From positions 187,596-251,595 of the forward strand of contig CAZIOP010000001.1 of the NCBI GenBank assembly GCA_964540895.1: a stretch of DNA of 64,000 bases, in the 5' to 3' direction. The notes below the pieces were generated by a model that saw nothing but the letters and a program-made list of their open reading frames with translations, did no database searches and had not been told where the DNA came from. Positions 6,472-48,861 of the stretch are shown here, piece after piece. Every line of letters starts with the position of its first letter. The stretch's first letter is position 1. A program made the position numbers and the translations under genes. Source of the DNA: an uncultured Gammaproteobacteria bacterium (lineage in GTDB: Bacteria; Patescibacteriota; Patescibacteriia; Patescibacteriales; Patescibacteriaceae).

Positions 6472-7002
6472 TTAGGTGAGTTTTATCAGATCTTTTATTT
6501 CGACAACTTTGATATTACTCTGTTGCCAGGTGAATATTTCTCTTATTCTTTTTCTGAATAGGTATTCGATGTTGATTTTCTTTAAATCATCCAGAGTTAT
6601 CAACTCTTTTGTTAATTTTTGATCTGTGGGTGTGTTTGTATAAAGATATTTTAATTTACCCTTAACTATAAAACATTTATAGTTAGGGTTTGATCGTCCT
6701 CTGTATGCACCAACAGACTTAGGATAGAATATGCCCTTTCCATTAACGTGATGGGCAAAAATAATATCGTTATTTTGGGTAATAACAATACCAATTTTTG
6801 TCTCACATTGTGAATTGAAAGCAATTGTTTCGGCTTCTTTTAGAAAATTGTTAATTCTTCCACCTTCCCCATTTATTAAATGAGGAGTTTTGAAATAACC
6901 TTCAAGTTTTTTTTGTGGGTAAGGATAAACAGAGGTTGAATTATTGGCTCCTTCTCTATTTCCGTTTGTTTCTGTTTCAAAGTTTTTTTGACTCTGATTC
7001 AT
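6472..7002 (-). CDS. orphan hypothetical protein (176 aa) with a strong SD
   Basis: GAAGGAGGcgaaATG upstream on the minus strand. No family recognised. Confidence 0.6.
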   Translation of the reverse strand: MNQSQKNFETETNGNREGANNSTSVYPYPQKKLEGYFKTPHLINGEGGRINNFLKEAETIAFNSQCETKIGIVITQNNDIIFAHHVNGKGIFYPKSVGAYRGRSNPNYKCFIVKGKLKYLYTNTPTDQKLTKELITLDDLKKINIEYLFRKRIREIFTWQQSNIKVVEIKDLIKLT

Positions 7003-11586: not shown

Positions 11587-12066
11587 AAACATTACTATAT
11601 ATATAGAAGTGTATTACAACGTAGTACATTGCTATATCTATAGTACAGACTCTTTTTCGAAGAGTTTAGCTATAGAGAAAGACTTGCCTAGTGAATAACT
11701 AGGGGAGCAGTACGGCCCGAAAGGTCGAAATTCGTTTCCGAACGAATTGCTGTGCTCGATTGAATTACTAATTGGTAATACAATCGATTAACAAACCTTA
11801 TATGTTTTGGAAAAGCTTTCACCTAAGCTTTGTACAAAGTAGCGGTGAATAAATCCTTTATTGGATTTAGAATACATCAATTTTGCTTTTCTCCGCGTCA
11901 ATGAGGATAGAAGTTTCTTCTATTATTATTTGATTGTGGATCAGTGAATATCCCCATGTTTGCTCTCCAAGCTTCGGTAGAACTTATGTTCTCATTGATG
12001 CGGGGAAGCGGGATTCCGATTGATGTGCACGGTTTTCTCAGAACTGTTAAAAGGATTAAATTACGT
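11587..12066 (+). promoter_or_regulatory. long (~480 nt) hairpin-rich region upstream of the giant surface-protein gene (probable 5' UTR)
   Basis: Perfect hairpin aattcgtt-tccg-aacgaatt nested in gagcag...ctgtgctc, plus cgattg...caatcg and aaatcc-tttatt-ggattt. No credible ORF. Confidence 0.35.
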
Positions 12067-15000
12067 ATGAATAATACCTTACGAAAGATTTCTATTTTCG
12101 CTTTGGTAGTAATGACAGTTGTAAGTGTTAGTGGTCTTTCCGTTTCTAACGTGAAAGCTGCTGCCCTAGACGGTGACTTGATCAAAGTTGCTAATAATTC
12201 AACTGTTTATTACTACAACAATACTAAGCGCTATGTTTTTCCTAACGAAAAAACATTCAAGACTTGGTACCGTGATTTCAGTGGTGTTAAAGTTATTTCC
12301 CAATCTGAATTGGAAAGCTACCCATTGGGTGGCAACGTAACTTACCGCCCTGGTACTCGTTTAGTTAAGATTCAATCAGCTCAAGGTGTGTACGCTGTTG
12401 GTTATGGCCGAACCCTTCACTCAATTGTGAGCGAAGCTAACGCTATTAGCCTTTGGGGTGCTAACTGGAATAAGATGATTGATGACGTCCCAGATGCTTT
12501 CTTTACCAACTATGTTACAGGTTCTCCTTTGACTGCTGGTATGTATAGCGAAGGACAGTTAGTTAAGATGTCTACTAGTGCTGATATTTACTACTACGAT
12601 GGTGTTAACTACCGTAAGTTTGCAAGCGAATCTGCCTTTAACAGCAATCGCTTCAGCTTTGCTCACGTAGCAACTGCTCCATCAAGTTGGACTTCATTCA
12701 CTCCAGTTGGTTCTCCAATTTCAGGTGTTGAAGCTAACTTAGTAAATACTGCCGGTTCTGCCTCAAGTTCTGCTTCAACTGGTACTGGTTTAACTGTTGC
12801 TATGTCAGCAGCTACCCCAGCTTCAGCAAGCGTTCCTTTGGGAGCTACTGGTGTTAAGTATACTGATTTTAATGTTACTGCTTCTAACGACGGTGATATT
12901 ATTCTTCAGTCAGTAACCATTAACCGTTCTGGTGTTGGTACTGCTGCTGATTTCTCAAATGTTTATTTGTATGACGGAACAACTCGTTTGACTACTGGTC
13001 GATCGATTAATTCTAGTACTAACAAAGCAACATTTAACAACCTAAACCTAACAATTGCTCGTGGTACTACTAAGACTTTGAGCATTGTAGCTGACATGTC
13101 AGCTTCAGGTACTGGTTCAGGTTCAAGTTCACTTGGTGTATTATCAGCTGCTGATGTAGTAGCTGGTGGTGCTACAGTTACAGGGTCTTTCCCAGTAGCT
13201 GGAAACATGATGGGAATGGTTAACGTTACTGCTGGTACCGTTACTATTACTAAGAACGGCACAATGAGTGACGTAAAAGCTGGCTCATTAGCAGCTAAGA
13301 TTGCTTCATTCCAATTGTCTGCTGGTTCTGGTGAAGATATGAAAGTTAACGGCATTACTTTGTATAACACAGGTAATATCGGATCTGATAAATTGACTAA
13401 TTTTGTTCTAAAGCAAGCTGGTGTTACCCTTGGTACTGCTACTGCTATGAGTTCAAATAGCCAAATCATGATCAACTTCACAACTCCTTTCTTGTTAGAA
13501 AAGGGTGCTTCACGTAACTTTGATTTGTACGCTGACGTAGCTGCTTCAGCTCGTGCTAACGATACAATCAAACTATATCTAGATAACAGTGCTGACTTAC
13601 GAACTACCGGCCAAACTTATGGCTTTGGTGCTTCTGTAACACGTACTGCCTATGACGGTGAAGGTGGAAACCAAGGTGCCTTTGAAGGTGCTTGGGTTGA
13701 CATCGAAGCTGGTCAGGTAACTATTTCTTTCATTGGTCCTTCTGTTCAAGACATCGCTGTTCAACAGCAAGATGTTGAGTTGTTCCGCTTTACGATTACT
13801 GCTCAAAGCAATATCGAAATCCGTAACACTCGTTTGAACATGACTGCTGGTGGAACTGTTACTGATGACAGTGGTTTGTGGGACAACGACACAACTGATA
13901 CTGCTAACTACCGTGATATTAAATTCACTGACGTTACTTCAAATCAGTTAGTGGCTGGTCCTAAGGACGTTACAGCTTCAGGTTCTGATACAACTCAGGA
14001 CTTAGTTTACACAGATACTTGGAATGTTAACGCTGGTCAGACTCGAACTATTAAGGTTACTTCTGACTTAGCAACCTTCACTCCAGCTTCTGATGAAACT
14101 ATCAAAGCTACTTTGAATGCATTTACTGCATCTACTGATATCAAGAATCTTGATACTAATCAGTTCTTAGCTACGGCTGATATTGTTCCATCAACTGCGG
14201 TTGCTGGTAACACTCACCGAGTTAAGTCAGGTGCTTTGACATTGGCTTTGGCTGGTGCTCCATCAGCTCAAACTTATATTCATGGATCCACTGGTGTTCA
14301 GATGGTTGGTGTTAACATGACCGCTGGAACTGGTAAGGATGTTAAGGTTACAGAAGTTATGCTCACCGCTACTGGTGCTGATGACTGTGCAACTGAAACA
14401 GATTGTATCTTGAATGTTAAGCTTTGGGATGGCGCTACTCAGGTTGGTCAGACAGAATCTTTGTCTACCACAACTGTAACCTTCGATAACTTGAATGTTA
14501 CAATTCCAAAGGGTACAACTAAGACTTTGATTGCAACTGTTGATTTGAACACAATTACCTTCACAGCTGGTGCTGATACATTAGAGCTCGGCGTTGCTGC
14601 AGCTACAGATGTTGACGCTCAAGATGTAGATGGTAACTCAATCACTCCAACAGGAACAATTGACGGTCCTGACCACACAATTTCTGCTGCTGGTTCTTTG
14701 ACTGTAGCTCTTGGTGCAGATAACGCTCTAACTGAAAGCCGAATTTTGTTAGCTGGTAAGACTGACGAGACTATTGCTCGTTATAACTTTACAGCTGCTA
14801 ATGAAAGCTTGAAGTTGACTCGTGTTACTATTGAATTACCTGCCAGCACTGATGACGAAGTTACCAGTGTTAGCTTGTGGGATGGTGCTACTAAGGTTAC
14901 TGGCGACGTTGCTGTAACTAGTGCAGGTACACCATATGCTAAGTTCAATAGCTTCACACATGACTTTGTTATTCCAAAGGATTCTAGCAAAGTACTAACA

Positions 15001-15897
15001 GTAAAGGTTAATACCAATACTATTGGTCAAGGTGCTGACTCTGGAGCAACTGTTACAGCTACATTAGCAACAGATACTACAGCTGATGATCAGTTTGAAG
15101 CTCGTGGTGTTTCAAGTAATACTGTTCTTGACGATGATGATATGACTCAGACATCTGCAAGAGCTATGGTATTACGAAAGACAACTATGGCTATCACTGA
15201 ATCTGCTATTGCTTCTTCAGTTATCTCTAACGGTAACCCACAAGAACTATACAAATTCACTGTAAGTGCTGATGCTTCTGGTGATATTGCATTGAAGCAA
15301 TTGATCCTAAATGCAGTTATTACCGATAACGTAGGTACTGACAACACATTGGTAGCTGGTACATTCCAGATTTACCGTGATTCAACCAACCTTACTAGCA
15401 ACGTTGATATTCACAACTTAGCTGGTGCAACGATTGAATCAACTAACACCTTAGCTGAAGGTACAAGCCAAGTTATTATTACTTGGGCAAGTGAAGAAGT
15501 TGTCGCTGCTGGAACTACAAATACATATTCTATTCGAGGTACCTTGAGTGGATATGCTACTCCAGCTGATGATGATACCTTCCGTATGTTCTTGAATACT
15601 GACGCAACTGCGCAGACATCTACTCATGTCTACTTAGTAGATCTTGATACGACTGCTGCTCAGTCAACTGCTTCATTAGGTCTTCAAGACGCTTCAGCCG
15701 TAACTGGTACTGAAGGTGCTACACCTACATTGGCTTCGAACATGAATGTTATTTGGTCTGATAATTCCGATGTTCCACATGACTACGACCTCGTAGACAG
15801 TTCCTTAGCTGGTACTGACTCGACTTCTGGTGATGACTGGATCAACGCTTACCTGATCAAGAACTTCCCATTCTCGGGACCAACCTTGAATAACTAA
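12067..15897 (+). CDS. giant secreted surface / S-layer-like protein (1276 aa) with N-terminal wall-binding-like repeats and many Ig-like repeats
   Basis: Signal peptide MNNTLRKISIFALVVMTVVSVSGLSVSNVKAAA. Three ~55-aa repeats (LIKVANNSTVYYY.., LVKIQSAQGVYAV.., LVKMSTSADIYYY..). Recurring F(D/N)NLN(L/V)TI(A/P)(R/K)GTTKTL modules. Thr/Ser/Ala/Gly-rich. Confidence 0.8.
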   Translation: MNNTLRKISIFALVVMTVVSVSGLSVSNVKAAALDGDLIKVANNSTVYYYNNTKRYVFPNEKTFKTWYRDFSGVKVISQSELESYPLGGNVTYRPGTRLVKIQSAQGVYAVGYGRTLHSIVSEANAISLWGANWNKMIDDVPDAFFTNYVTGSPLTAGMYSEGQLVKMSTSADIYYYDGVNYRKFASESAFNSNRFSFAHVATAPSSWTSFTPVGSPISGVEANLVNTAGSASSSASTGTGLTVAMSAATPASASVPLGATGVKYTDFNVTASNDGDIILQSVTINRSGVGTAADFSNVYLYDGTTRLTTGRSINSSTNKATFNNLNLTIARGTTKTLSIVADMSASGTGSGSSSLGVLSAADVVAGGATVTGSFPVAGNMMGMVNVTAGTVTITKNGTMSDVKAGSLAAKIASFQLSAGSGEDMKVNGITLYNTGNIGSDKLTNFVLKQAGVTLGTATAMSSNSQIMINFTTPFLLEKGASRNFDLYADVAASARANDTIKLYLDNSADLRTTGQTYGFGASVTRTAYDGEGGNQGAFEGAWVDIEAGQVTISFIGPSVQDIAVQQQDVELFRFTITAQSNIEIRNTRLNMTAGGTVTDDSGLWDNDTTDTANYRDIKFTDVTSNQLVAGPKDVTASGSDTTQDLVYTDTWNVNAGQTRTIKVTSDLATFTPASDETIKATLNAFTASTDIKNLDTNQFLATADIVPSTAVAGNTHRVKSGALTLALAGAPSAQTYIHGSTGVQMVGVNMTAGTGKDVKVTEVMLTATGADDCATETDCILNVKLWDGATQVGQTESLSTTTVTFDNLNVTIPKGTTKTLIATVDLNTITFTAGADTLELGVAAATDVDAQDVDGNSITPTGTIDGPDHTISAAGSLTVALGADNALTESRILLAGKTDETIARYNFTAANESLKLTRVTIELPASTDDEVTSVSLWDGATKVTGDVAVTSAGTPYAKFNSFTHDFVIPKDSSKVLTVKVNTNTIGQGADSGATVTATLATDTTADDQFEARGVSSNTVLDDDDMTQTSARAMVLRKTTMAITESAIASSVISNGNPQELYKFTVSADASGDIALKQLILNAVITDNVGTDNTLVAGTFQIYRDSTNLTSNVDIHNLAGATIESTNTLAEGTSQVIITWASEEVVAAGTTNTYSIRGTLSGYATPADDDTFRMFLNTDATAQTSTHVYLVDLDTTAAQSTASLGLQDASAVTGTEGATPTLASNMNVIWSDNSDVPHDYDLVDSSLAGTDSTSGDDWINAYLIKNFPFSGPTLNN

Positions 15898-22721: not shown

Positions 22722-23141
22722 TTATCCAGGGTTTATATTATTAATTTTGTTTCGAATAACAGCGGCCTCCTCATAGTTCTCCTCTTCAAGTGCCTTGTTA
22801 AGCGAGATTTGCAAATTATCTTCTGCTACAGATTTTTTTGAAGGAAGAGGTATTTCAAATGCATATACCTCTTCAATATGACTTAAAAAGGTATCTCTAG
22901 TACCTTCTAGGTCAGGATACCATCCAAAATCATCTTCATTAATATGAACAACATATCCTTCTTTAAGACGTGTAACTTTGAGACAGAATAGCTCAGTTTT
23001 TTTCGTACGTATTGAAAAACTTGTATCAATAAAAAATTTTTTGTTCTTGTCTACCCAGCATGATAAAATTGCTATGTAGGCTGATTGCCCGAACTGAAGT
23101 TCAGATATTTTACTAAGAATTTTTTCTGGGGGGAGCTCCAT
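22722..23141 (-). CDS. orphan protein with a C-terminal UVR-like motif (139 aa), strong SD
   Basis: AAAGGAGGtattATG upstream. C-terminal LNKALEEENYEEAAVIRNKI resembles the UvrB/UvrC (UVR) helical hairpin. Confidence 0.6.
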   Translation of the reverse strand: MELPPEKILSKISELQFGQSAYIAILSCWVDKNKKFFIDTSFSIRTKKTELFCLKVTRLKEGYVVHINEDDFGWYPDLEGTRDTFLSHIEEVYAFEIPLPSKKSVAEDNLQISLNKALEEENYEEAAVIRNKINNINPG

Positions 23142-24089: not shown

Positions 24090-24287
24090 ATGCAGGGTAC
24101 AATCAAAAAATTGACTGACAAAGGCTTTGGTTTCATTGCTTCTGAAGGTCAGGAAAAGGACTTATTCTTCCATAGTAACAACTTGGTTGGTGTCCAATTC
24201 AACGACCTACACGAAGGTGACGCTGTCACTTACGAAACAGAGCAATCTGAAAAGGGTCTAAACGCTGTTAACGTACAACGTGCGTAA
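24090..24287 (+). CDS. cspA: cold-shock protein (CspA family)
   Basis: KGFGFI (RNP-1) and LFFHS (RNP-2-like) motifs; 65 aa. Confidence 0.95.
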   Translation: MQGTIKKLTDKGFGFIASEGQEKDLFFHSNNLVGVQFNDLHEGDAVTYETEQSEKGLNAVNVQRA

Positions 24288-24436: not shown

Positions 24437-24454
24437 ATGTTGTTCGGACATTAA
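24437..24454 (+). CDS. micro-ORF 1: MLFGH* (5 codons) behind AAAGGAGG
   Basis: aaaggaggtaattatcATGTTGTTCGGACATTAA. Confidence 0.3.
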   Translation: MLFGH

Positions 24455-24523: not shown

Positions 24524-24565
24524 ATGATGACATCAAATCGCATTGGCCATCTTTTTGGTCATTAA
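24524..24565 (+). CDS. micro-ORF 2: MMTSNRIGHLFGH* (13 codons) behind GAAGGAGG
   Basis: gaaggaggttagcacaATGATGACATCAAATCGCATTGGCCATCTTTTTGGTCATTAA. Confidence 0.3.
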   Translation: MMTSNRIGHLFGH

Positions 24566-24635: not shown

Positions 24636-24800
24636 TCAACTAGTTATTTTATACATCACCCAAATCCCAAGTATTCCACCTAGACCACTAATAATGACTG
24701 AAGAGAAAGAGAAGACACTTGCACCCCAGAGGAGGGGGATAAAGCTACCGATAGTTGAGCCAATTAAGAGACCGAGCCAGATGAGAGTTTTTGAATTCAT
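24636..24800 (-). CDS. small two-helix membrane protein (54 aa), absent from the ORF track
   Basis: Hand translation MNSKTLIWLGLLIGSTIGSFIPLLWGASVFSFSSVIISGLGGILGIWVMYKITS*. Confidence 0.5.
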   Translation of the reverse strand: MNSKTLIWLGLLIGSTIGSFIPLLWGASVFSFSSVIISGLGGILGIWVMYKITS

Positions 24801-24853: not shown

Positions 24854-24882
24854 TTGACAAGTATATGAATAAATGATAGTAC
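24854..24882 (+). promoter_or_regulatory. promoter TTGACA-N14-TGA-TAGTAC for T9SS-CTD gene 1
   Basis: TTGACA at 24854-24859 and TGATAGTAC ending at 24882. About 135-nt A-rich UTR follows. Confidence 0.45.
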
Positions 24883-25019
24883 TCAAGAATAGAAGGAAAG
24901 GAGATATTTAAAAATTTAATAAATTTAAACACAGAAAGGAATATTTTGTTTTATTTTACATCCCCAAAATAAAATTTAAAATTAAACTGTCTCTAAAAAA
25001 GAGACAAAAGGAGAGTAAA

Positions 25020-26717
25020 ATGTTTAAGAAATTTTTTATCATGGTTTTAGGTTTTTGTTTGTCGGTAATAACTGCTGAGGGTCAGTGGTTAAATGAATTC
25101 TCAGCTATGGGACAAAATAATAATATCCTAACTACCGACGATCCTCAACCAGAGAGGGCACAAACTGACATAACCGTTTTCCCAGAGGGTTTGTATAATT
25201 GGGAAACCGGCTTACTTTGCGATAGTATCTGGGCAATGGGAAAGTTTAGCAAAAATGCAGATAACATAAACCAGTTTCAATGGCTTAGGCCATATCAGAG
25301 AGACTGGATGGATGTGTTAAGCTTTGACAGTTTGGATATACAAACCGGAGTTACACCTGTAGCTTGGGTTCAACTCGAGCTCAGAAGTAGGGAGGTTGAC
25401 TTCAAAGGTATGCCTAGAAGGTTTTATCATCAGGAAGGAATAATAACCACGAAGGGCAAAATTCTTGACGTTAGGGGATTCCCATTCTCGTGGAATGTAG
25501 TGATTGGTGACTACTTTATTGTAGTCCATACCAACAATCATTTACCTATCCAGAGCTCCCACTACGTTTTTTTTCAGAGAGATAGAGTAACGTGGGATTT
25601 TACTGACTCACCTGCGAAAACCTTGGGCGGCAAAGGAGCCGTCAAATTATTGCCAGGAAGCGTTGAAAAATGGGGAATGAGAGCGGGTGACCTGTGTCCA
25701 GCTCAAGGCTTTGGGTTAGGACATGATGGGGTCGTGGATCTAAACGACCAAATGTATATTTTTTATAGATATCATTTTAACTACGGCCACTGGGCCCCTG
25801 ACTTAAACGGTAATGGCAAGATTACACCGGACGACATAAACATGTGCGCCGCAAACTGGTTCGACGAAACATTCGTCCAGTATTGGGGACCGCCTTGGTG
25901 GAAGCAGCCATTGGGCAGTGATGACCCAGTTCCAGTTATAACTGGTTATGGTTATACATTAACAGCGGATAATTTCAGAACAACCCCTGCCCCGGGAGTT
26001 ATGAATTTCCAAATTCACATTCAAGCTGACGTTGATAGTTTGTATGTGGGTGGAATTCAACTAGCACTGAGGGTAAATCCTGATTACTTCGGAGGTATTG
26101 GACACATCTTTGCTGGACTCGAACCAAGTCCGGAACCATTCATTATTGATACAACAAGAATAAATATTAGTAATGATGAGATTAGAATAATAATCTTTCC
26201 AATGGATCCGATGGTCTTATACCGTATAAGTGATTCAGCTCCAAATTTACTTGTAAAAATTCGTCTTTGGACTGATTTGGGAGCGTTCCAAGGAAGCTTA
26301 AATCCATCTTGGAAAAACTCTGGAAACTTCCATACTCAAGTAATAGCGAGAAAGCCAGATGGAGGCATTCCTCCATTTGATGTGACTGACTCAAGTCGTC
26401 ATGTAATTGATTTTCCAACCGGCATAACCGGAGTTCAGGATATAATACCTGTTGATTATTCATTATTACAAAACTTCCCAAATCCCTTTAATCCCTCAAC
26501 CACGATATCATATTCCTTACCAAGGAACAGCAATGTAGAGTTATCGGTGTTTGATATTACAGGAAGACAAGTAATGAATTTAATGAATAACGAAGAAAAA
26601 ATTCCAGGAAATTATTCAATTACATTTGACGGAAGTAATTTATCCAGTGGAACATATTTTTATAAATTGAAAACAGATGAATTTACCGATGTAAAGAAGA
26701 TGGTTCTTATAAAATAA
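25020..26717 (+). CDS. secreted protein with a T9SS type-A C-terminal sorting domain (paralog 1)
   Basis: Signal peptide MFKKFFIMVLGFCLSVITAEG. SD aaaggagag. Last 85 aa (nt 26460-26714): SLLQNFPNPFNPSTTISYSLPRNSNVELSVFDITGRQVMNLMNNEEKIPGNYSITFDGSNLSSGTYFYKLKTDEFTDVKKMVLIK. Confidence 0.85.
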   Translation: MFKKFFIMVLGFCLSVITAEGQWLNEFSAMGQNNNILTTDDPQPERAQTDITVFPEGLYNWETGLLCDSIWAMGKFSKNADNINQFQWLRPYQRDWMDVLSFDSLDIQTGVTPVAWVQLELRSREVDFKGMPRRFYHQEGIITTKGKILDVRGFPFSWNVVIGDYFIVVHTNNHLPIQSSHYVFFQRDRVTWDFTDSPAKTLGGKGAVKLLPGSVEKWGMRAGDLCPAQGFGLGHDGVVDLNDQMYIFYRYHFNYGHWAPDLNGNGKITPDDINMCAANWFDETFVQYWGPPWWKQPLGSDDPVPVITGYGYTLTADNFRTTPAPGVMNFQIHIQADVDSLYVGGIQLALRVNPDYFGGIGHIFAGLEPSPEPFIIDTTRINISNDEIRIIIFPMDPMVLYRISDSAPNLLVKIRLWTDLGAFQGSLNPSWKNSGNFHTQVIARKPDGGIPPFDVTDSSRHVIDFPTGITGVQDIIPVDYSLLQNFPNPFNPSTTISYSLPRNSNVELSVFDITGRQVMNLMNNEEKIPGNYSITFDGSNLSSGTYFYKLKTDEFTDVKKMVLIK

Positions 26718-26740
26718 TTAAGATTGTTTTCATATAATGG

Positions 26741-26786
26741 AACCTCTTACCTGCAGTAATATCGCAGCGTGAGAGGTTTTTTTTAT
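26741..26786 (+). terminator. intrinsic terminator after paralog 1
   Basis: aacctct..ctgc...gcag..agaggtt followed by T8. Confidence 0.55.
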
Positions 26787-26814
26787 TTTAATATTAGCCT
26801 ATATATTAATATTA

Positions 26815-26843
26815 TTGACAAAAAAGGCCATAAGTGATAATAC
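26815..26843 (+). promoter_or_regulatory. promoter TTGACA-N14-TGA-TAATAC for T9SS-CTD gene 2
   Basis: TTGACA at 26815-26820 and TGATAATAC ending at 26843. Alignable with the paralog 1 promoter. Confidence 0.45.
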
Positions 26844-26861
26844 TAGGGCAAAGGAGAAACA

Positions 26862-26963
26862 TTAAAAAACTATCATAAATTTAAACAAAGAAAGGGATAT
26901 ACTATTTTTGAGTAAAGCCCAAAAATTAAAAAATTATCATAAATTTAAAAAGAAAAAAAGGAG
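26862..26963 (+). repeat. tandem direct repeat of an A-rich UTR module (TTAAAAAAyTATCATAAATTTAAA..)
   Basis: ttaaaaaactatcataaatttaaacaaagaaaggg at 26862-26895 and ttaaaaaattatcataaatttaaaaagaaaaaaaggag at 26926-26963, 64 nt apart. Confidence 0.7.
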
Positions 26964-26969
26964 TTCAAA

Positions 26970-28679
26970 ATGTTGAAATTAAAGAAAATCTTTTTGTTAA
27001 CACTACTTTTTTGTTCAATCGGGACAACGTTTGAACAAATCAATAATGAATATACAAAATTTGTGAAACCGGGAATGTTTCTTGGTAAAGCATTTCAAAA
27101 CATAGAGAACGATTCAGTAAGTGATATACCACAAGTTCCATGCTCATTCTTTGATATTCGGATCATGTTCAATTCCGCAATGGAAAAGGGAGAGAAACCA
27201 GAATCTATGAGAACAGACTTATCGAATGTGGTTCCTAACGATCTTCTCGTGCCTGAATTATTCGGGGCTGTTTGGCCACAACAAGAAAAATGGTGGAGCA
27301 TGATGAGATTTGACACGATGTCCATCCAAGTGAATAAAGGAGCGTTTATGAACGCTGGTGGTGTTGATTTTGTACAAGTTGACTTTAGGAAGGGGAGTGC
27401 TTATGCACCAACGGCAAGAATCAAGGTTTGGGGATTTGTTACAAAAACTGGAAAAATTCATGGATTACATGGAGAATTTCCTTTGAAAGTACCATTCGTT
27501 GTAGATGGAGATTGGTACTTCGCAGTTCATAATCCGCGGATTCTATCTGTTATGAGTGCCACTAGGGTTCATCCAACATTACTTGGATTAACTAGTTACG
27601 ATTTTACGACAGGAGCTGATAAATTTTTCAAAGGAGGTGGTGTAGAAATTCATGAAGGTTTCTGGGGTGCCATCGGAGGAGAAGGAAAGAGCCACAAAGG
27701 GTATGGAAATAATGTACTCGATCTTTTTGATTGGCTTGTGTGCCACAATCTCATAGTTAATGGTCCATTACTTAATGTTTATTCTTCGTCTGACGCAGAT
27801 TTTGACGGAGATGTAGATATTGATGATGAACAATTAATATGGAATTCGGCTATTGCTGAATCAACTGTCCCATGGATAGATGAATTCTGGCAAAATACGC
27901 CTAACATTCAATATCATGATTTTGACTTTACGTTACCGACTTATCAGTTAACTGCAGGTAACTTTGTCTCAGTTAGCGATTCAATTTTTAGCTTTGATGT
28001 ACATTTGCTAAGCACTAGTACTGAAACTTTCAACTATGCTGCTGGACAGTATATTCTAGATATTGACAGTAACTTAAATGTTACCAGTATCGAAATGTCT
28101 GACCCGATGATGCAGGAATTGACATCATTCAGGCAGGTTGGTAATCAGATACAGTTGATTATGGTGACACGTCCGGGAGGTACGTACCAAGTGTCGGGAC
28201 AGTCGCCCGGCAGTAAGGTAGCAAGATTCAAAGTAGTATATAGTAACTCAGGACATGATACCCCAACCCCGGTACGTTGGGTGAACATTCCTTCTAATAT
28301 TCCGACGTTGATGTATGCAGATATTGGTGGGCAAGCAATACCAATAACAACTCCGGAAACGCATTTATATGATGGGGGATTGACGAATGTTGGATCTGTA
28401 AATGTGACTTTACCTTTGGGATTTTCTTTATCCCAAAACTTCCCAAATCCATTTAATCCCTCGACGACAATAACATATGCATTACCGGTTAATAGTAATG
28501 TATCGTTATCGGTGTATGATATTAATGGCAGGGAAGTAATGAATTTACTTAATGCACAAAAACCGGCCGGTAATCACTCTATCGTCTTTGACGGTAGTAC
28601 ATTATCAAGCGGCGTTTATTTTTACAAACTTCAAACAAGTAGATATATTGAGACAAAGAAAATGATGTTAATAAAATAA
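26970..28679 (+). CDS. secreted protein with a T9SS type-A C-terminal sorting domain (paralog 2)
   Basis: Signal peptide MLKLKKIFLLTLLFCSIGTTFEQ. SD aaaggag. Last 85 aa (nt 28422-28676): FSLSQNFPNPFNPSTTITYALPVNSNVSLSVYDINGREVMNLLNAQKPAGNHSIVFDGSTLSSGVYFYKLQTSRYIETKKMMLIK. Confidence 0.85.
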   Translation: MLKLKKIFLLTLLFCSIGTTFEQINNEYTKFVKPGMFLGKAFQNIENDSVSDIPQVPCSFFDIRIMFNSAMEKGEKPESMRTDLSNVVPNDLLVPELFGAVWPQQEKWWSMMRFDTMSIQVNKGAFMNAGGVDFVQVDFRKGSAYAPTARIKVWGFVTKTGKIHGLHGEFPLKVPFVVDGDWYFAVHNPRILSVMSATRVHPTLLGLTSYDFTTGADKFFKGGGVEIHEGFWGAIGGEGKSHKGYGNNVLDLFDWLVCHNLIVNGPLLNVYSSSDADFDGDVDIDDEQLIWNSAIAESTVPWIDEFWQNTPNIQYHDFDFTLPTYQLTAGNFVSVSDSIFSFDVHLLSTSTETFNYAAGQYILDIDSNLNVTSIEMSDPMMQELTSFRQVGNQIQLIMVTRPGGTYQVSGQSPGSKVARFKVVYSNSGHDTPTPVRWVNIPSNIPTLMYADIGGQAIPITTPETHLYDGGLTNVGSVNVTLPLGFSLSQNFPNPFNPSTTITYALPVNSNVSLSVYDINGREVMNLLNAQKPAGNHSIVFDGSTLSSGVYFYKLQTSRYIETKKMMLIK

Positions 28680-28881
28680 TCAAAATCAAACTATTTAGAA
28701 TTAAGCTCACAGAGCTTACGTAATTCGTTATTCGTTCTTTCTTTTTTAGCGTAACAGCATTTAATATTTATTTTTTTGCGGCCTAAGTTCAAGGGCTTAG
28801 GATTAAGAAAATTACGTTTAATATATTGTTGCTCTTTTCCTTGAATGGAAGTATATTAAGATTCGAAATTTTAACTAAATA

Positions 28882-28933
28882 GAAGTCTGAGACTTCCCTG
28901 GGAAACGATTTCCCGATACGCACTTTATTGTGC
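28882..28933 (+). ncRNA. three back-to-back perfect short hairpins (candidate structured RNA element)
   Basis: gaagtc-tga-gacttc (28882-28896), gggaaa-cga-tttccc (28900-28914), gcac-tttatt-gtgc (28920-28933). Confidence 0.2.
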
Positions 28934-28962
28934 ATCAAACTTGGTTAAACTAAAATAGTTGA

Positions 28963-28991
28963 TTGACATTTTATTTTATTAAATACATATT
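28963..28991 (+). promoter_or_regulatory. promoter-like TTGACA-17-CATATT
   Basis: TTGACA at 28963-28968 and CATATT at 28986-28991. Confidence 0.35.
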
Positions 28992-28997
28992 GAATCG

Positions 28998-29072
28998 ACA
29001 CAATTAATCATCAACACCAGATGTTTAATTTAGATTCGAAAGCCCTAGCATATACGTATGTTGGGGCTTTTT
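28998..29072 (+). ncRNA. candidate ~75-nt sRNA (promoter to terminator)
   Basis: Ends in agccc...ggggct plus T5 (29041-29072). Only a 54-codon ORF that reads through two terminators. Confidence 0.2.
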
Positions 29073-29100
29073 ATATTATAGTTTTATATATATTCTATAG

Positions 29101-29136
29101 GTTAAATAAAAACCGGTTGATTAATTACAACCGGTT
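29101..29136 (-). terminator. intrinsic terminator for the minus-strand beta-barrel-like gene
   Basis: aaccggtt-N10-aaccggtt (self-complementary arms), followed on the minus strand by ttttatttaac. Confidence 0.55.
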
Positions 29137-29162
29137 TAATGTTAAAAATATACTTTATAGTG

Positions 29163-30041
29163 TCATAGACAACGTCCAAAATTAATTACCTCAAGTTTCA
29201 GGTAAAGATTATTCACTGGTCTAATATTTTTTGAGAAAACAGCTTCTTGCGTATAGCCCAGTTGGATAACTTTTGCGTATTTATTTTCTACTATAAAGAA
29301 AAACCCTATCTGGTTTAGATCTAGTTGATGTTGAGAAGCGTATTTGTAGCCACAATAGATATTTCCGCCTACTCTCCAACTGTTATTTATATTAATGCTA
29401 TGTATTCCTAGTTCAAGCCAGATTTGAAGGTTTTTTCTGTTACTGGGAGAAATTTTTATTTCTGTACTGTTGATTGAAGCCTGTGCAATTGACTCCAAGG
29501 GATATTCATATCGTATACCAAGTAATAACCGGTTAAAGATATTACTATTTCTAATTAACTCTGATGTTGATTCCATGTATACAAGCCAGTCATTTTGTAT
29601 TTGGCTAAATTTAAGATAACCAAATAAGTCTGGCAGAATAAGCTCAGAACTTTGACTAATGTGAATAACACCAAAATTCATTCGTGTGTCAATTAGAAAG
29701 TTACCTGTAGATGCAAGGAGTCCTATTGTTGGTCCACAGCCTGCTACTATACCTTTGTTAGAGTTTCCGATTAGGATTTTATCGTTTATGAATGATCCAG
29801 ATTTTAAAGCAAAGCCTTCTATACCCAAGAAAATTTTCTTTAATTCAGGTTTTTGGTGTATTGATACTAGTGTACTTAAATAATTACCCTGAAAAAATTT
29901 ATTTCCGAAACCGCTAATTGAAATTGTGGTTTCAACTACATTATTTCGAAAATAGAAAGTACTGTCTGGCGCTTGTCCGTTACTCATAGTTGAATGAGAT
30001 AACAATATAGCTACCGCTATTATTTTGATGGCTCTAAACAT
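29163..30041 (-). CDS. secreted beta-barrel-like protein (OMP-like, tentative), strong SD
   Basis: TAAGGAGGaaacaATG. Signal peptide MFRAIKIIAVAILLSHSTMSNGQ. Many alternating-hydrophobic strands (TTISISGFG, IFLGIEGFALK, LLLGIRYEY, LQIWLELGIHSI, VIQLGYTQEAVF). Confidence 0.65.
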   Translation of the reverse strand: MFRAIKIIAVAILLSHSTMSNGQAPDSTFYFRNNVVETTISISGFGNKFFQGNYLSTLVSIHQKPELKKIFLGIEGFALKSGSFINDKILIGNSNKGIVAGCGPTIGLLASTGNFLIDTRMNFGVIHISQSSELILPDLFGYLKFSQIQNDWLVYMESTSELIRNSNIFNRLLLGIRYEYPLESIAQASINSTEIKISPSNRKNLQIWLELGIHSININNSWRVGGNIYCGYKYASQHQLDLNQIGFFFIVENKYAKVIQLGYTQEAVFSKNIRPVNNLYLKLEVINFGRCL

Positions 30042-30200: not shown

Positions 30201-31688
30201 ATGTGGAAACTTAATTTTGACAACAAAAATAAGCAATATGTGTATCTATTAGCCATAGGTGCATTATTGCTCGGAATACTCTTTGATTACTTATTTTTTG
30301 AGAAATTTTTTGGTATTTCCTTCTTTATTTTTGAGTCAATTCTACTAATATTGACATACTGGTTTAGTGATCGTTCGTATCATATATTTCGACCTGCTTT
30401 ATGGTTATTTGTAATTGCTTTATTTTTTGCAGCTATGGTAGCAGTTCGAGCTAATCCCTTTCTAACGTTTTTAAATGTTGTAGCCAGTATGGGGTTATTA
30501 TTGTTAGCAACACAGGAACTACGTAAAAAACCTATTATTAACTTCCAAATACCTGATTATATTAGAGCTATACTAGTAACACCTTTGTTGATTTTGCGAC
30601 GATCATTACAGGCACTGACTTTTTTAAGTAGATCACCTGAGAAATCTTCATCGGCGGTATTTAAGAGAGTTATTGTTGGAGTGATAATGGCTCTGCCGTT
30701 TCTTATTATTTTTGGTGCACTATTTACTTCAGCAGATTTAGCTTTTAAACAACTCGTTGATTCTATTTTTAGATTCCAGATTCCAGATGAATTTTTCGGG
30801 CATGTGGTGTTAATTGTAGGAGTATTTGTTGTTTGTTTAGGTATATTTGCCTATCTATTTAATGTACCGCCTGAAAAAGAGTTTTTTGAAACTCCAGAAA
30901 ATTCTAAATTAGAGAAAGATACGGTAGATAGAAATATAGAAATCAGAGTGTTTCTGTGGCTAATAGCTGGCCTTTTTGCCGTCTTTCTTATTTTCCAAAT
31001 CGCTTATTTATTTGGGGGAGTTATTAATATTTCACAAAGCACTTTTACCTATGCTGAATATGCCAGAAAAGGATTTTGGGAGTTGTTAACTGTAGCTTTC
31101 TTCACCTTACTTATTCTGTTAATCATGGATAGATATACCAGGTTCAAAGGGCCTCGTGTTGGTTGGTTTACAGTGCCTAGCTTGGTATTGATAGGTGAGA
31201 TCTTTATCATTATTATTTCAGCTTTTAAGCGACTAATGTTGTATCAAGCAGCCTATGGATTAACCACCCTTAGACTATATGTGGCGGGGTTTATTATTTT
31301 CCTTGGTGTTATTTTTATATTATTGGCCGTAAAGCTCTGGCGTGAACAAGAAGATCGTTTCTTTGTTTTTGGTACACTACTTTCTATGATAGCCTTTGTT
31401 GTGGTTTTTAATATATTAAACCCTGATGTCTTTATTGCTCAACAAAATATTAATCATTTTAGCAAAACAGGCAAAATTGATGCTCAGTATCTGGGAAGTA
31501 TGTCAGCTGATGCTGTGCCTATTATTCTCAGTGTCTATGATCGCTTCAATGATGAAGACAAAACTACTATTGATCAGCTTATCGTCACTAAGAAAAAGGA
31601 GATTGAAGAACGACAATCTCAGTGGCAGTCATATAATCTGTCACAACATAGGGCACTTATTGAGATATATAAGAGACCTTCAAATTAG
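30201..31688 (+). CDS. large polytopic membrane protein (DUF4153/DUF4173-like, tentative)
   Basis: 495 aa with about 12 hydrophobic segments and a soluble C-terminal tail. Confidence 0.7.
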   Translation: MWKLNFDNKNKQYVYLLAIGALLLGILFDYLFFEKFFGISFFIFESILLILTYWFSDRSYHIFRPALWLFVIALFFAAMVAVRANPFLTFLNVVASMGLLLLATQELRKKPIINFQIPDYIRAILVTPLLILRRSLQALTFLSRSPEKSSSAVFKRVIVGVIMALPFLIIFGALFTSADLAFKQLVDSIFRFQIPDEFFGHVVLIVGVFVVCLGIFAYLFNVPPEKEFFETPENSKLEKDTVDRNIEIRVFLWLIAGLFAVFLIFQIAYLFGGVINISQSTFTYAEYARKGFWELLTVAFFTLLILLIMDRYTRFKGPRVGWFTVPSLVLIGEIFIIIISAFKRLMLYQAAYGLTTLRLYVAGFIIFLGVIFILLAVKLWREQEDRFFVFGTLLSMIAFVVVFNILNPDVFIAQQNINHFSKTGKIDAQYLGSMSADAVPIILSVYDRFNDEDKTTIDQLIVTKKKEIEERQSQWQSYNLSQHRALIEIYKRPSN

Positions 31689-47019: not shown

Positions 47020-48111
47020 TTGAAAACATCAATATTAGTACTTCTGTTGCTTTGTTTCTTTTCAAGTATAGGGTTGGCTCAGTTGACCCCGAAAGAAAAA
47101 AGCAAACCAACTGAAGAGAAAGTCACAGGGGATACTATTCCTAATATAGTCACTAATGTAACACCGGCAGATGTCCTTGTATCAACATCATCTTCAAAAT
47201 TAACACCGAAGACGAAGGAACAGAAAAAGAATTCTGAGAAAACGGCCTCTAATCTTACTAACACTTCAGAAAACACATCTGGAGAATCTGAAAGTAAAAT
47301 TATTTTTCCTCTATCTCAGGTTCAATTATTTGTAGGTTATGTAGCCTATAATGATTATCTGTTAAATGGTAATGGTATATATGGTGAATTTACTGTTCGC
47401 CAGGGACCAAACCTTACTGAAGGTAAATATAAAAATACCTTATGGGGTATGGGTGTAAAAGCCGGTAAGTATCAAACATTCAGTAAACAGTTTGATACTG
47501 ATCTCGAAAAGTTTACAACAACCACTAAAGAAATAGGTGGCTTTATCTCAATGGCACGTGTTACAAAACGGGCTAACTGGAATTCCTTCGTATTAAACCT
47601 TGAAGGAAAACAATCAGTTGATGAAGGCTCACAAGGTCTTTATCGCAGAAAACAAGTTGATATATTAATAGCTGTCAACACCTGGATTGATCTAACTAGA
47701 AAAAATAGTAATTTGTGGTTTTCAAAAACCAATTTCAGTTTGTATTATCAATATCCTCTAAAAACGTCTGTTTCTTCATTTTATGATGGAGAGAGGATTC
47801 AGGATAATACCTGGAATAAAAAGTTGCTGTTTTTGAACTTTGATCAAACGATGCTTCAGTTCAACTTAGCTGAAGTTGCAGAAAAAATGTCTATAAACTT
47901 TGGTTTCAACCTTGGTTACCGACATTTTTCTCAAGGCAAGAAAGATATGTACGCACTCGGCGTTTTTTCCGAAGCATTTTATTGGCTTTGTAAAATTGTT
48001 AGAGCCGGGGTTGAACTAATCATTGACCCAACTGAAAAAACCAGTCGTGGAAAAAATATAATTTTTAAAACCGATTGGGACTTATTTCAGGTGGGTAGAG
48101 CTATATTTTAG
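47020..48111 (+). CDS. secreted OMP-like beta-barrel candidate ending in an aromatic residue (TTG start, strong SD)
   Basis: taaggagaaaacactaTTG. Signal peptide KTSILVLLLLCFFSSIGLAQ. Ser/Thr/Lys-rich linker, then alternating strands (QLFVGYVAY, IYGEFTVRQ, SINFGFNLGYRHF..). C-terminus ..FQVGRAIF. Confidence 0.65.
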   Translation: MKTSILVLLLLCFFSSIGLAQLTPKEKSKPTEEKVTGDTIPNIVTNVTPADVLVSTSSSKLTPKTKEQKKNSEKTASNLTNTSENTSGESESKIIFPLSQVQLFVGYVAYNDYLLNGNGIYGEFTVRQGPNLTEGKYKNTLWGMGVKAGKYQTFSKQFDTDLEKFTTTTKEIGGFISMARVTKRANWNSFVLNLEGKQSVDEGSQGLYRRKQVDILIAVNTWIDLTRKNSNLWFSKTNFSLYYQYPLKTSVSSFYDGERIQDNTWNKKLLFLNFDQTMLQFNLAEVAEKMSINFGFNLGYRHFSQGKKDMYALGVFSEAFYWLCKIVRAGVELIIDPTEKTSRGKNIIFKTDWDLFQVGRAIF

Positions 48112-48180: not shown

Positions 48181-48861
48181 ATGAGTAAAAACATGAAAAG
48201 AGGTTTAATTGTAACAGTAGTAGCTGGTTTTGTTATTTGCGCAGTTTTATTTTGGGTATTTGTCGGTAAGCAAGCCTTTAACTATGTTTCTGACAAAGTA
48301 AATTCAAAGAAAGTTGCACAGGTCGTTGAAAGTACAGACAAAACAGATCAGAATATTATTCAGCCTCAGACGCAGATACAAACACAAAGCCCGGATCAAC
48401 AAACAACAGGTAATTCAGCCGGACAAACTTCCACTATTTCCTCAACAACAGGAATTGACATTTTTACCCAGGGGAAGGATTTTATTTTCGATAATGGTGA
48501 AGAAGGATATAATTTCAGAATTAAAGAAAATGAGTTATTGCCTCAAATGGTCGGTGATCTTGGAATAACTGTTGACGGAAAGCGTTTCATAAAAACCAGT
48601 ATACTGAACAGATTCAGGCCTGCCGGAAATGCAACTGTTATTAAGTGTCTTGGTAAAGGTATTGTTGACAAAAATAACAAGTGGCCTCGCGTAGATACCA
48701 AAGTTGAAGGCGAATATACTTATTATCAATGTCCTTTAAGCTGGAAAAACGGCTACTGTTTGTTCAATTTTGCCTATTTTACCGATAAGGGGAAATCTAC
48801 AGAGCGTTATATTGCACATGAAATTGCAGAAAAATATCCACATTCGGAAGATATTATGTAA
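48181..48861 (+). CDS. membrane-anchored or secreted hypothetical protein (226 aa), strong SD
   Basis: gaaggagtaatacaatcATG. N-terminal TM GLIVTVVAGFVICAVLFWVFV, then a Gln/Thr-rich linker. Confidence 0.65.
   Translation: MSKNMKRGLIVTVVAGFVICAVLFWVFVGKQAFNYVSDKVNSKKVAQVVESTDKTDQNIIQPQTQIQTQSPDQQTTGNSAGQTSTISSTTGIDIFTQGKDFIFDNGEEGYNFRIKENELLPQMVGDLGITVDGKRFIKTSILNRFRPAGNATVIKCLGKGIVDKNNKWPRVDTKVEGEYTYYQCPLSWKNGYCLFNFAYFTDKGKSTERYIAHEIAEKYPHSEDIM

Follow-up and report, generated by a model that had tools for sequence, protein, structure and literature searches.

Conserved type A T9SS C-terminal domains on two tandem paralogues in a Patescibacteria contig

The window analyzed here (the whole stretch of DNA, 64,000 nucleotides, from a 637,630-bp contig of an ultrasmall Patescibacteria (CPR) bacterium) contains two adjacent genes, A and B, whose products begin with a signal peptide and end in a T9SS type A C-terminal domain (CTD). 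The features of the locus are as follows.

24090..24287, +: cold-shock-domain (CSD) gene (PF00313), which anchors the variable locus on its left and is conserved
24910..24974, +: leader element upstream of A (direct repeat D3; copy upstream of B)
25007..25013, +: strong Shine-Dalgarno (SD) site of A, AAAGGAG
25020..26717, +: gene A, 565 aa; signal peptide, ~240-aa module, middle beta-sandwich, type A CTD
25161..25886, +: ~240-aa module of A (residues 48-289; VDWVxxELR...HRNHL-like...YDFT...), without a Pfam name
25938..26429, +: middle beta-sandwich domain of A (residues 307-470; AF2 strands 312-465)
26457..26714, +: T9SS type A CTD of A (residues 480-565; AF2 beta-sandwich 481-563)
26866..26930, +: leader element upstream of B, a copy of that upstream of A
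26970..28679, +: gene B, 569 aa; paralogue of A, sharing its architecture; strong SD AAAGGAG upstream
27156..27881, +: ~240-aa module of B (residues 63-304; module HMM E 9e-46)
28422..28676, +: T9SS type A CTD of B (residues 485-569; TIGR04183 and PF18962)
29038..29071, +: terminator-like hairpin after B (15-bp stem, then a T run)
29110..29137, -: terminator-like hairpin after ORF C
29163..30041, -: ORF C, secreted, convergent with B, strong SD
30201..31688, +: DUF4153 membrane protein (PF13687, E 8e-79), the conserved right-hand neighbour

Both open reading frames are present with the C-terminal sequences quoted in an earlier note on this DNA (565 and 569 aa), and inspection agrees with its assignment of Sec signal peptides to A and B (K-rich n-region, hydrophobic h-region, ..EGQ/..FEQ). 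The two are paralogues over their full length (30% identity, E 3e-41; about 70% in the CTD). Their leader elements (24910-24974 and 26866-26930) are 75% identical, and a -10-like box, TGATAATACT, is common to the upstream regions of A, B, and the orthologue in a related locus, L087. Strong SD sites precede 9/9 family and ORF C genes versus 10/129 neighbours (Fisher p = 2e-9); most backbone genes are SD-less, as had been claimed (SD absent from 47/58 window genes).

The A module (HMM match E 2.5e-63) ends in two D-x-N-x-D-G-x-(I/V)-x-x-x-D dockerin-like loop-helix motifs (AF2 helices 241-249 and 270-278). An AlphaFold model of A (43-sequence alignment; pLDDT 83.7, pTM 0.72) gave only multi-Ig-like Foldseek matches (TM about 0.13), with no catalytic fold among them; modelling thus shows A-type proteins as chains of predicted beta-sandwich domains without an enzyme fold. 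The middle domain is family-specific, with no PDB sequence match, and its candidacy as a cohesin relative was rejected (hhalign probability 1%).

The description of the C termini as near-canonical type A sorting domains was borne out by the TIGR04183 HMM, which both matched far beyond chance: A at 43.1 bits (E 3e-11, residues 486-562) and B at 46.1 bits (E 4e-12, residues 491-566), against a curated cut-off of 23 bits. PF18962 scores were 48.9 (A) and 45.0 (B) bits (cut-off, 27 bits). Within a comparison set selected by resemblance to the query, the closest named CTDs were from Ignavibacteria and Bacteroidota MAGs (55-65% identity), and CPR CTDs were 48-70% identical to each other and as similar to those labelled Ignavibacteria or Bacteroidota (55-66%). 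To our knowledge, the T9SS has been described only in Bacteroidetes-like double-membrane bacteria. A Pfam scan of the 58 window ORFs of at least 100 aa gave no match to T9SS or outer-membrane biogenesis families, in agreement with the earlier reading that no T9SS machinery gene lies in the window.

Mean pairwise identity among eight family members was 31% for the signal peptide, 25.5% for the module, 23.8% for the middle domain, and 51.1% for the CTD; the CTD is the best-conserved part of these proteins (51% versus ~25% for the body), and its terminal KKM-LIK strand is kept in all members. Between B and its positional orthologue in L087, the corresponding values were 91%, 17%, 17%, and 58%; by these alignments, the two ends of the protein (signal peptide and CTD) persist, whereas divergence of the body is close to saturation. 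High CTD conservation could come partly from a tight fold or gene conversion (CTD-coding DNA of A and B is 78% identical).

Beyond the window, the A/B architecture is present in four contexts or more: L087, L100, L004, and the closed type genome of Patescibacterium danicum. A syntenic 6.5-kb contig is among the occurrences in related small genomes. Synteny with L087 covers DUF4153 (82%), a glyoxalase (89%), ORF C (66%), and the B orthologue. On L100 (a 667,803-bp contig), family genes occupy the same CSD...HtrA locus as A/B: a CSD gene 91% identical to that of the window precedes a CTD protein, HtrA (78%), PfkB (56%), and Fpg (65%) are shared, and two CTD proteins lie between. The P. danicum member, QQS60527.1 (CP065010.1, Patescibacterium danicum ABY1), is labelled by NCBI [quoted passage not shown] and its gene has those for IF-2, RbfA, RuvB, and RNase Y around it on a CPR chromosome that is closed and circular. 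It resembles A/B in its module (HMM E 5e-59) and CTD (HMM E 2e-36), as well as in having a strong SD amid SD-less neighbours, but differs outside the CTD (17-32% identity) and in context (between DUF218 and QueA). That genome is circular (938,851 bp); for the organism, an envelope of one membrane with murein was inferred and host association was predicted (PMC11809585). OIO06585.1/PIR95840.1 (138 aa, Falkowbacteria CG1_02_37_21) consists of the CTD and a short N terminus, without an SD, and its gene adjoins IS and recombinase genes. None of QQS60527.1, OIO06585.1, and PIR95840.1 is discussed in the P. danicum genome paper (PMC11809585), nor are these CTD proteins discussed in any paper in the literature searched; since NCBI labels such proteins as T9SS sorting, databases already record the observation, which is absent from that literature. 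L004, P0017, and P0024 are without taxonomic placement, so CPR specificity of the fused module-CTD architecture is provisional.

The Patescibacteria/CPR backbone proposed earlier was supported by ribosomal proteins L10 and L12 and by synteny, which place it as Falkowbacteria/ABY1-like. The window L12 was 94% identical to that of an "uncultured bacterium" bin and, among named MAGs, 76% to Falkowbacteria, 71% to Parcubacteria, and 66% to Patescibacteria; L10 reached 55/54% identity, versus at most 37% against records named outside CPR. Synteny also extends to the CPR-type 757-aa and ArsR-like genes. Logan assemblies SRR8893621/22/23 were 100% identical across both junctions, and each outer junction was crossed a minimum of two times with 100% identity. 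In SRR8893622 the assembly is interrupted between A and B, a gap that the two others bridge. With three independent assemblies in agreement, the junctions are not artefacts. Composition and codon usage of the locus are native (codon-usage z values of -1.4, -1.3, and -1.1, within the backbone range; no GC break). A 1317-aa surface protein earlier called wall-anchored carries no LPXTG-type motif, and that label is not confirmed. The window also holds a polysaccharide cluster (Wzy_C, GT4 genes, and a Wzz-like match too weak to reach the Pfam cut-off).

Module and CTD occur elsewhere as separate genes. A module profile search gave 4602 matches (E<=1e-3); among the 150 listed, the majority matched over the module alone. 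None of the module ORFs in 78 module-containing JGI loci carried a CTD, and PF18962 was found in 36/143 ORFs flanking module genes; the gene next downstream of the module had a CTD in 30/60 cases versus 35/291 elsewhere in the flanks (p = 4e-10). In seven cases, the adjacent gene combined an A-type middle domain with a CTD. Since module and CTD otherwise lie on adjacent, separate genes of CTD-rich metagenome contigs, A and B resemble an old foreign fusion; an FCB-type origin of the pairs is suggested by the CTD-rich context and a few query-similar named Ignavibacteria/Bacteroidota matches. Module-terminated metagenome proteins share the ~240-aa module with A/B (VDWVLVELR...HRNHL..MS...YDFT...dockerin-like loops...S-x-VP), but there it ends large subtilase/beta-helix/FG-GAP/cohesin/dockerin proteins and the CTD is on a neighbouring gene, whereas in A/B the two are fused. 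Type I dockerin (PF00404) is like the motifs at the module end, and one module-family member (P0020) matches Dockerin_1, but A and B have no PF00404 match at E<=0.1 and their middle domain shows no kinship with cohesin.

T9SS type A cargo of Bacteroidota/Ignavibacteriota has the same Sec signal peptide and C-terminal ~80-aa beta-sandwich with a terminal strand as A/B. A and B differ in their Patescibacteria backbone, with no T9SS or outer-membrane gene in the window, and in their non-enzymatic passenger, in which a module is joined to a middle domain; CTD-rich genomes encode these two separately. We think it probable, though well short of certain, that the tandem paralogues A and B belong to a small, rapidly evolving protein family, exported by Sec and located at the cell surface or outside the cell. 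The family would be native to Falkowbacteria/ABY1-type Patescibacteria, derive from a fusion of foreign origin, and carry a CTD that acts after export. An ancient acquisition from bacteria with a T9SS (FCB-type, Ignavibacteria-like) would have supplied the building blocks, and module and middle/CTD genes would then have been fused in the CPR lineage, inherited vertically, and duplicated. Capture of cargo from FCB, suggested earlier, survives as an ancient event but not as a recent or isolated one (native composition, same L100 locus, P. danicum copy). The lineage appears to have one membrane and to be without a T9SS (64-kb window scan; one paper's inference on a relative), so export would be by Sec alone and the CTD would not direct translocation across an outer membrane. 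That the CTD is so strongly conserved suggests a function that depends on its sequence once the protein has been exported, for which surface retention or anchoring, oligomerisation, and binding of a conserved partner are candidates; the variable body may serve adhesion or host/particle contact under diversifying selection. Because the CTD is genuine, has been inherited, and is under strong conservation among relatives, it probably has a job other than T9SS sorting in Patescibacteria.

Other explanations were weighed. An episymbiont might display the CTD to those parts of an FCB host's T9SS that bind such domains (a PorV-type shuttle/attachment complex), and so dock on or select Ignavibacteria or Bacteroidota hosts. 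Such host-directed mimicry seems unlikely: in T9SS bacteria, the CTD is recognized from the periplasmic/translocon side and normally removed, and the comparison in which CPR CTDs appear equally similar to Ignavibacteria/Bacteroidota-labelled ones used a set picked by similarity to the query. It would nonetheless account for a CTD near the canonical FCB consensus and twice as conserved as the remaining protein, and for a hypervariable body, as expected of host-interface proteins; host association is also predicted for P. danicum. Decidedly unlikely, in our judgement, is that a T9SS-independent pathway of the Patescibacteria envelope reads the CTD as a true signal for sorting or anchoring, for example through sortase-like cleavage with wall-polysaccharide attachment. 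Conserved signal peptide and CTD around a variable body (91/17/17/58%) follow sorting-signal logic, the family is retained across genera, and the window has a polysaccharide cluster; sortase/LPXTG surface proteins of monoderm bacteria offer an analogy in logic, with a conserved N-terminal export signal, conserved C-terminal element, and hypervariable body, but by sequence A/B lack the hydrophobic tail and charged end, and their C-terminal element is a folded domain. A candidate processing enzyme was not found, the loci examined each have one to a few CTD proteins whereas a dedicated pathway usually serves many substrates, and ORF C is inconsistently linked to CTD genes (missing from L097 and L100).

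We hold it very doubtful that the CTD is an evolutionary leftover, which arrived on a transferred gene and today does no more than space or stabilize the protein as an Ig-like fold without specific function. Domains often travel with genes, and nothing but successive Ig-like domains emerged from AF2 and Foldseek; a functionless tail, however, would be expected to decay like the body or faster (CTD, 51% versus 24-26%), and the CTD, with its terminal strand in all members, was maintained in several lineages and after duplication. Simple reuse as an Ig-like beta-sandwich, also raised earlier, fits a most-conserved CTD poorly. Finally, mis-assembly or mis-binning of FCB DNA into a CPR contig, or an organism that is itself an FCB diderm, is extremely improbable: CTDs are typical of FCB and one assembly breaks between A and B, but this reading is contradicted by the other assemblies, the absence of a GC or codon break, flanking synteny with CTD genes in L087 and L100, the member in a closed circular CPR genome, and the L10/L12 placement.

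ORF C had been described as having a signal peptide and a barrel-like, OMP-like sequence. The signal peptide stands, but the barrel is not supported: there was no match in Pfam, NCBIfam, PHROG, or PDB, the C terminus (..NFGRCL) is non-aromatic, and alternating hydrophobicity (z = 0.59) was not above shuffles. A single-sequence AlphaFold model had pLDDT 30. The L087 homologue (66%) likewise adjoins the B orthologue and DUF4153, and a homologue in L088 (40%) has no CTD gene within the available L088 sequence; linkage of ORF C to B is thus conserved in one relative only. ORF C is a distant paralogue of 47020-48111 (hhalign 80%).

Two adjacent open reading frames with the C-termini quoted in the earlier note were recovered at 25020-26717 and 26970-28679. 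The locus comprises the following features.

24090..24287, cold-shock-domain (CSD) gene
25020-26717, gene A, 565 aa
26970-28679, gene B, 569 aa
29163-30041 (-), ORF C, convergent with B

[quoted passage not shown] The matches cover nearly the full model (TIGR04183 positions 2-70 of 72, at A residues 486-562 of 565 and B residues 491-566 of 569), stopping 3 residues short of the stop codon in each protein. The Sec signal peptides proposed for the two N-termini (MFKKFFIMVLGFCLSVITAEGQ and MLKLKKIFLLTLLFCSIGTTFEQ) were likewise seen, by inspection. In T9SS cargo, the CTD is cut off by PorU, and the protein is then released or attached to A-LPS. A and B are 30% identical across their whole length (E = 3e-41) and ~70% identical in the CTD. 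Because their upstream leaders have a 65-nt repeat in common and their CTD-coding DNA is 78% identical, the pair is a tandem duplication that took in the regulatory region. Terminator-like hairpins lie 3' of B and 3' of ORF C.

Pfam annotation of 58 window ORFs returned a small-genome housekeeping backbone, including MnmA, Dus, DsbB with a DsbA-like protein, HtrA, PfkB, Fpg, YceG, ribosomal proteins L10 and L7/L12, MraZ, MraW, an FtsI-like PBP, and a Mur ligase. Also present were an ECF sigma factor with a DUF5667 partner, a Wzy_C protein, GT4 glycosyltransferases, and a weak Wzz-like match below the Pfam cut-off. As the earlier note had stated, no T9SS machinery gene (PorK/L/M/N or GldK/L/M/N, SprA/Sov, PorV, PorU, PorP/SprF) was found among these 58 ORFs with Pfam; nor was any outer-membrane gene (BamA, LptD, Lol, LPS). 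A 1317-aa protein (11944-15897, +) has a hydrophobic segment at its N-terminus; it had been called wall anchored, a description that was not confirmed: it lacks an LPXTG-type motif and matches neither Pfam nor NCBIfam. BLASTP ruled out P0020 (1313 aa) as this giant protein of the window.

The ribosomal proteins place the backbone within Patescibacteria (CPR), as had been proposed. In a GTDB-wide alignment scan, the best L7/L12 records were an "uncultured bacterium" bin.83 (94%) and "Candidatus Falkowbacteria" CG1_02_37_21 (76%), followed by a Parcubacteria bin (71%), a Patescibacteria SAG (66%), Uhrbacteria (65%), and further Patescibacteria; no record with a name from outside CPR exceeded 62%. 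For L10, the closest records stood at 75, 55, and 54% (the latter two named CPR) and named non-CPR records at no more than 37%; L10 tells the groups apart better than L12. Gene order agrees, with L10, L12, a 757-aa protein, and an ArsR-like gene in the same succession in the window, in L006, and in the Falkowbacteria contig L009. All window proteins looked up belong to one NCBI contig of 637,630 bp. The CPR-type synteny of L10, L12, and the 757-aa protein also occurs on CAZGUY010000006.1, a contig labeled "uncultured Gammaproteobacteria" that is probably from a mislabeled Patescibacteria bin.

Assembly artefacts at the borders of the locus had been raised as a possible objection. Both outer junctions were reproduced in Logan assemblies of SRR8893621, -22, and -23, which are 100% identical to the window and span the CSD-to-A junction, the A-B gap, and the B-C-DUF4153 junction twice each. 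GC content shows no step at the locus, and codon usage of the three genes lies inside the backbone range (z = -1.4 for A, -1.3 for B, and -1.1 for C). With the junctions spanned at 100% identity, GC content without a step, and native codon usage, mis-assembly and recent transfer are both unlikely; the locus is, in addition, syntenic in relatives, and recent horizontal transfer was discarded. The locus is genuine and native to a Patescibacteria genome.

The backbone had been described as lacking Shine-Dalgarno (SD) sites, and 47 of the 58 window genes indeed have none, whereas A, B, and C are all preceded by a strong AAAGGAG(G) site. Strong sites likewise precede the family genes and ORF C homologues in Patescibacterium danicum and in the loci L087, L004, L088, and L100. 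Across five other SD-less genomes (L004, L087, L088, L097, and L100), they were present on 9/9 CTD family and ORF C genes versus 10/129 neighbors (p = 2e-9). Since the strong SD is conserved across genomes, a fading signature of a donor is an unlikely explanation for it.

Queried with the first 480 aa of A, a word-indexed search returned only A itself and P0002, a 52% homologue; a GTDB genome scan with the N-terminal part gave no match, and a JGI scan with alignment A9 gave no confirmed relative. An exhaustive profile search recovered full-length relatives of the same architecture (P0017, P0018, P0024, P0029, P0032, and P0034) and thousands of further proteins; most of the 150 matches listed share only residues ~40-290. 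On L087, a B orthologue lies in synteny with a glyoxalase (89%), DUF4153 (82%), and ORF C (66%). The 667,803-bp contig L100 carries, in this order, CSD (91%), a CTD protein, P0032, HtrA (78%), PfkB (56%), and Fpg (65%); the CTD genes of L100 and of the window share one chromosomal locus.

P0029 (QQS60527.1) is labeled by NCBI as [quoted passage not shown] and lies between DUF218 and QueA, amid IF-2, RbfA, RuvB, and RNase Y, in CP065010.1 (GCA_016699775.1). This closed 938,851-bp sequence is the type genome of Patescibacterium danicum, itself the nomenclatural type of the phylum Patescibacteriota. P. danicum was inferred to have a single membrane and murein, and the paper describing it names no T9SS machinery (PMC11809585). 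In the sister genome Fred.cMAG.1 (917,454 bp), which shares 97.7% ANI with P. danicum ABY1, the P0029 orthologue is in two fragments (263 and 232 aa), through either pseudogenization or an indel error in the long reads. In Falkowbacteria CG1_02_37_21, whose assembly is also syntenic with the window at L10/L12, a CTD-only protein of 138 aa likewise carries a T9SS annotation. This protein, little more than a type-A CTD, was seen on at least 42 contigs (L092-L096, e.g., MNUT01000003.1), always adjoining an HTH_38 gene; a mobile element may carry it, because IS110, rve, and serine-recombinase genes lie close by. No paper discussing T9SS CTD proteins in Patescibacteria/CPR was found among those searched. 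CTD proteins in Patescibacteria are real, recurrent, and already in public annotation, and the paradox of a T9SS tag is a property of a whole lineage within Patescibacteria, beyond the window alone.

Conservation within the family was measured by region. In A and B, the CTD follows an N-terminal module of ~240 aa and a family-specific beta-sandwich, the middle domain.

Mean pairwise identity over eight family members, by region.
Signal peptide, 31%
Module, 25.5%
Middle domain, 23.8%
CTD, 51.1%

The same pattern holds between B and its positional orthologue on L087: the signal peptide is 91% identical and the CTD 58%, but the module and middle domain only 17%. CPR CTDs are 55-66% identical to CTDs labeled Ignavibacteria or Bacteroidota, as close as among themselves, in a comparison set chosen by similarity to A. 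As a functionless tail should not be the best-conserved part of a fast-evolving protein, this pattern argues for a sequence-specific role that the CTD keeps after Sec export.

An AlphaFold (AF2) model of A was built on a 43-sequence alignment (pLDDT, 83.7; pTM, 0.72).

Features of A in the AF2 model.
N-terminus, signal peptide, helix
Residues 44-220, beta domain
Residues 241-249 and 270-278, two short helices coinciding with two D-x-N-x-D-G dockerin-like motifs
Residues 312-465, second beta-sandwich
Residues 481-563, CTD sandwich of seven strands (block pLDDT, 87-96 from residue 491 and 74 for 481-490)

The CTD of A is thus predicted to be a compact beta-sandwich. Foldseek with the full-length model returned only strings of Ig-like domains (TM, ~0.13), from transglutaminase C-terminal barrels, alpha-2-macroglobulin, pilins, and WxLIP, with no enzyme fold among the matches. 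Profiles built from the N-terminal part of A/B and from the middle domain matched no PDB sequence. The likeness to type I dockerins (PF00404) is at motif level only, as A and B have no HMM match at E ≤ 0.1; neither matches Pfam Cohesin. A cohesin-like middle domain was rejected by hhalign against a cohesin-bearing protein (probability, 1%). We infer that A and B are adhesin-like surface or extracellular proteins.

The module has no Pfam name. It is marked by the motifs VDWVLVELR, HRNHL..MS, and YDFT, then dockerin-like loops and an S-x-VP end; elsewhere, it usually sits last in large, multidomain chains (subtilase, beta-helix, FG-GAP, and cohesin- or dockerin-containing). Its consensus had no match by tblastn against plasmids and isolate phages or in PHROGs scans. 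Neighborhoods were counted in 78 JGI metagenome loci with the module (L105-L182). None of 105 module ORFs contained a CTD, and PF18962 matched 36 of 143 flanking ORFs. A CTD was carried by the gene directly downstream of the module gene in 30/60 cases versus 35/291 (12%) elsewhere in the flanks (p = 4e-10), and by the gene directly upstream in 14/42. The A-type middle domain was matched by seven downstream genes. Stop-codon recoding was dismissed as the source of this split between module and CTD genes, as module genes end in TAA, TGA, and TAG. The adjacency hints that, in T9SS bacteria, the two products are physical partners, through tethering or co-secretion.

The JGI contigs with the module range in GC content from 0.29 to 0.60, are rich in CTDs, and also contain AnmK and SLBB genes, typical of bacteria with two membranes; these were the only envelope markers seen on them. 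Being CTD-rich and equipped with AnmK and SLBB, these contigs look like those of T9SS-bearing diderms. P0021 (1,083 aa), the best module-only match, has the module at its C-terminus and lies in a phage-like stretch that includes Baseplate_J and Gp80 genes (contig L102; JGI 3300033149 Ga0366834_1002860). The module is also encoded on two IMG/VR contigs (L103 and L104). Such contexts would fit a role in receptor binding or adhesion.

Reviews restrict the T9SS, along with its CTD tag, to the FCB superphylum or to Bacteroidota (PMC11205867, PMC10202324). In the present family, by contrast, a canonical CTD has been stably inherited and duplicated and is better conserved than the remaining protein, in a lineage that probably has one membrane and no T9SS and that takes in the type genome of the phylum Patescibacteriota. 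Because module and CTD sit on adjacent separate genes in CTD-rich contigs, A and B look like the fusion of an "X-module" gene with a "middle-CTD" gene, both typical of T9SS-bearing diderm-like organisms. An ABY1-type lineage would have taken up this fusion long ago, after which it would have been inherited, duplicated, and diversified. On balance, we favor, with some confidence, A and B as an anciently acquired, fused, Sec-exported surface family in which the CTD is kept for a T9SS-independent, sequence-specific function. If so, annotation as "T9SS cargo" from the domain alone would be unsafe outside FCB.

A more specific proposal, which we regard as rather improbable, is that in ABY1/Falkowbacteria-type Patescibacteria the canonical CTD works outside any type IX system in one of two ways: as an address tag for a hitherto undescribed anchoring route in the single-membrane envelope, or as a ligand for T9SS surface components of FCB hosts (secretion-signal mimicry by an episymbiont). 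Use of the CTD against or with T9SS-bearing hosts would offer a testable molecular handle on CPR-host specificity, a long-standing gap. Were the CTD to function outside the T9SS, the fused module-middle-CTD protein would serve as a "Rosetta stone" for FCB bacteria, in which CTD-less, module-terminated proteins would be physically partnered with the CTD protein encoded alongside. The adjacency of module and CTD in CTD-rich genomes, together with their fusion here, leads to a hypothesis on how CTD-less proteins could be tethered or co-secreted.

In the window, strong SD sites precede 6472-7002 (-), 22722-23141 (-), 25020, 26970, 29163-30041 (-), 47020, 48181, and 56037; the carriers of canonical AAGGAG(G) sites are a small gene set, mostly secreted proteins without assigned function. 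Three small elements lie between the CSD gene and A.

24437-24454 (+), mini-ORF, MLFGH*
24524-24565 (+), mini-ORF, MMTSNRIGHLFGH*
24636-24800 (-), just upstream of A, 54-aa Gly-rich two-helix membrane mini-protein (MNSKTLIWLGLLIGSTIGSF...), too short for the ORF list and read by hand

Each mini-ORF is preceded by GGAGG and ends in ..FGH; the two might be leader peptides or chance.

ORF C had been taken for an outer-membrane-protein-like barrel, a view that the sequence does not sustain. It had no Pfam or NCBIfam match at E ≤ 0.1, no PHROG match at E ≤ 0.01, and no PDB sequence match at E ≤ 10. It ends in ..NFGRCL and its homologues in ..GRGL and ..GFSKL, with no C-terminal aromatic residue, and its dyad-hydrophobic windows are at chance level (0.058 versus 0.043 ± 0.025 in shuffles; z = 0.59). 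AF2 from the single sequence gave no usable model (pLDDT, 29.9). The ORF C family has three members; in L087 the gene accompanies the B orthologue, whereas no link to a CTD gene was seen in L088, L097, or L100. Distantly paralogous to ORF C (hhalign, 80%; E = 1.5e-5) is 47020-48111, one of a second small Pfam-less group within a polysaccharide (Wzz-like/Wzy_C/GT4) cluster.

47020-48111 (+), signal peptide, strong SD
48181-48861 (+), strong SD
48940-49374 (+), signal peptide

In the 47020-48111 protein, the signal peptide is followed by an S/T/K-rich linker and a beta-rich C-domain ending in ..GRAIF.
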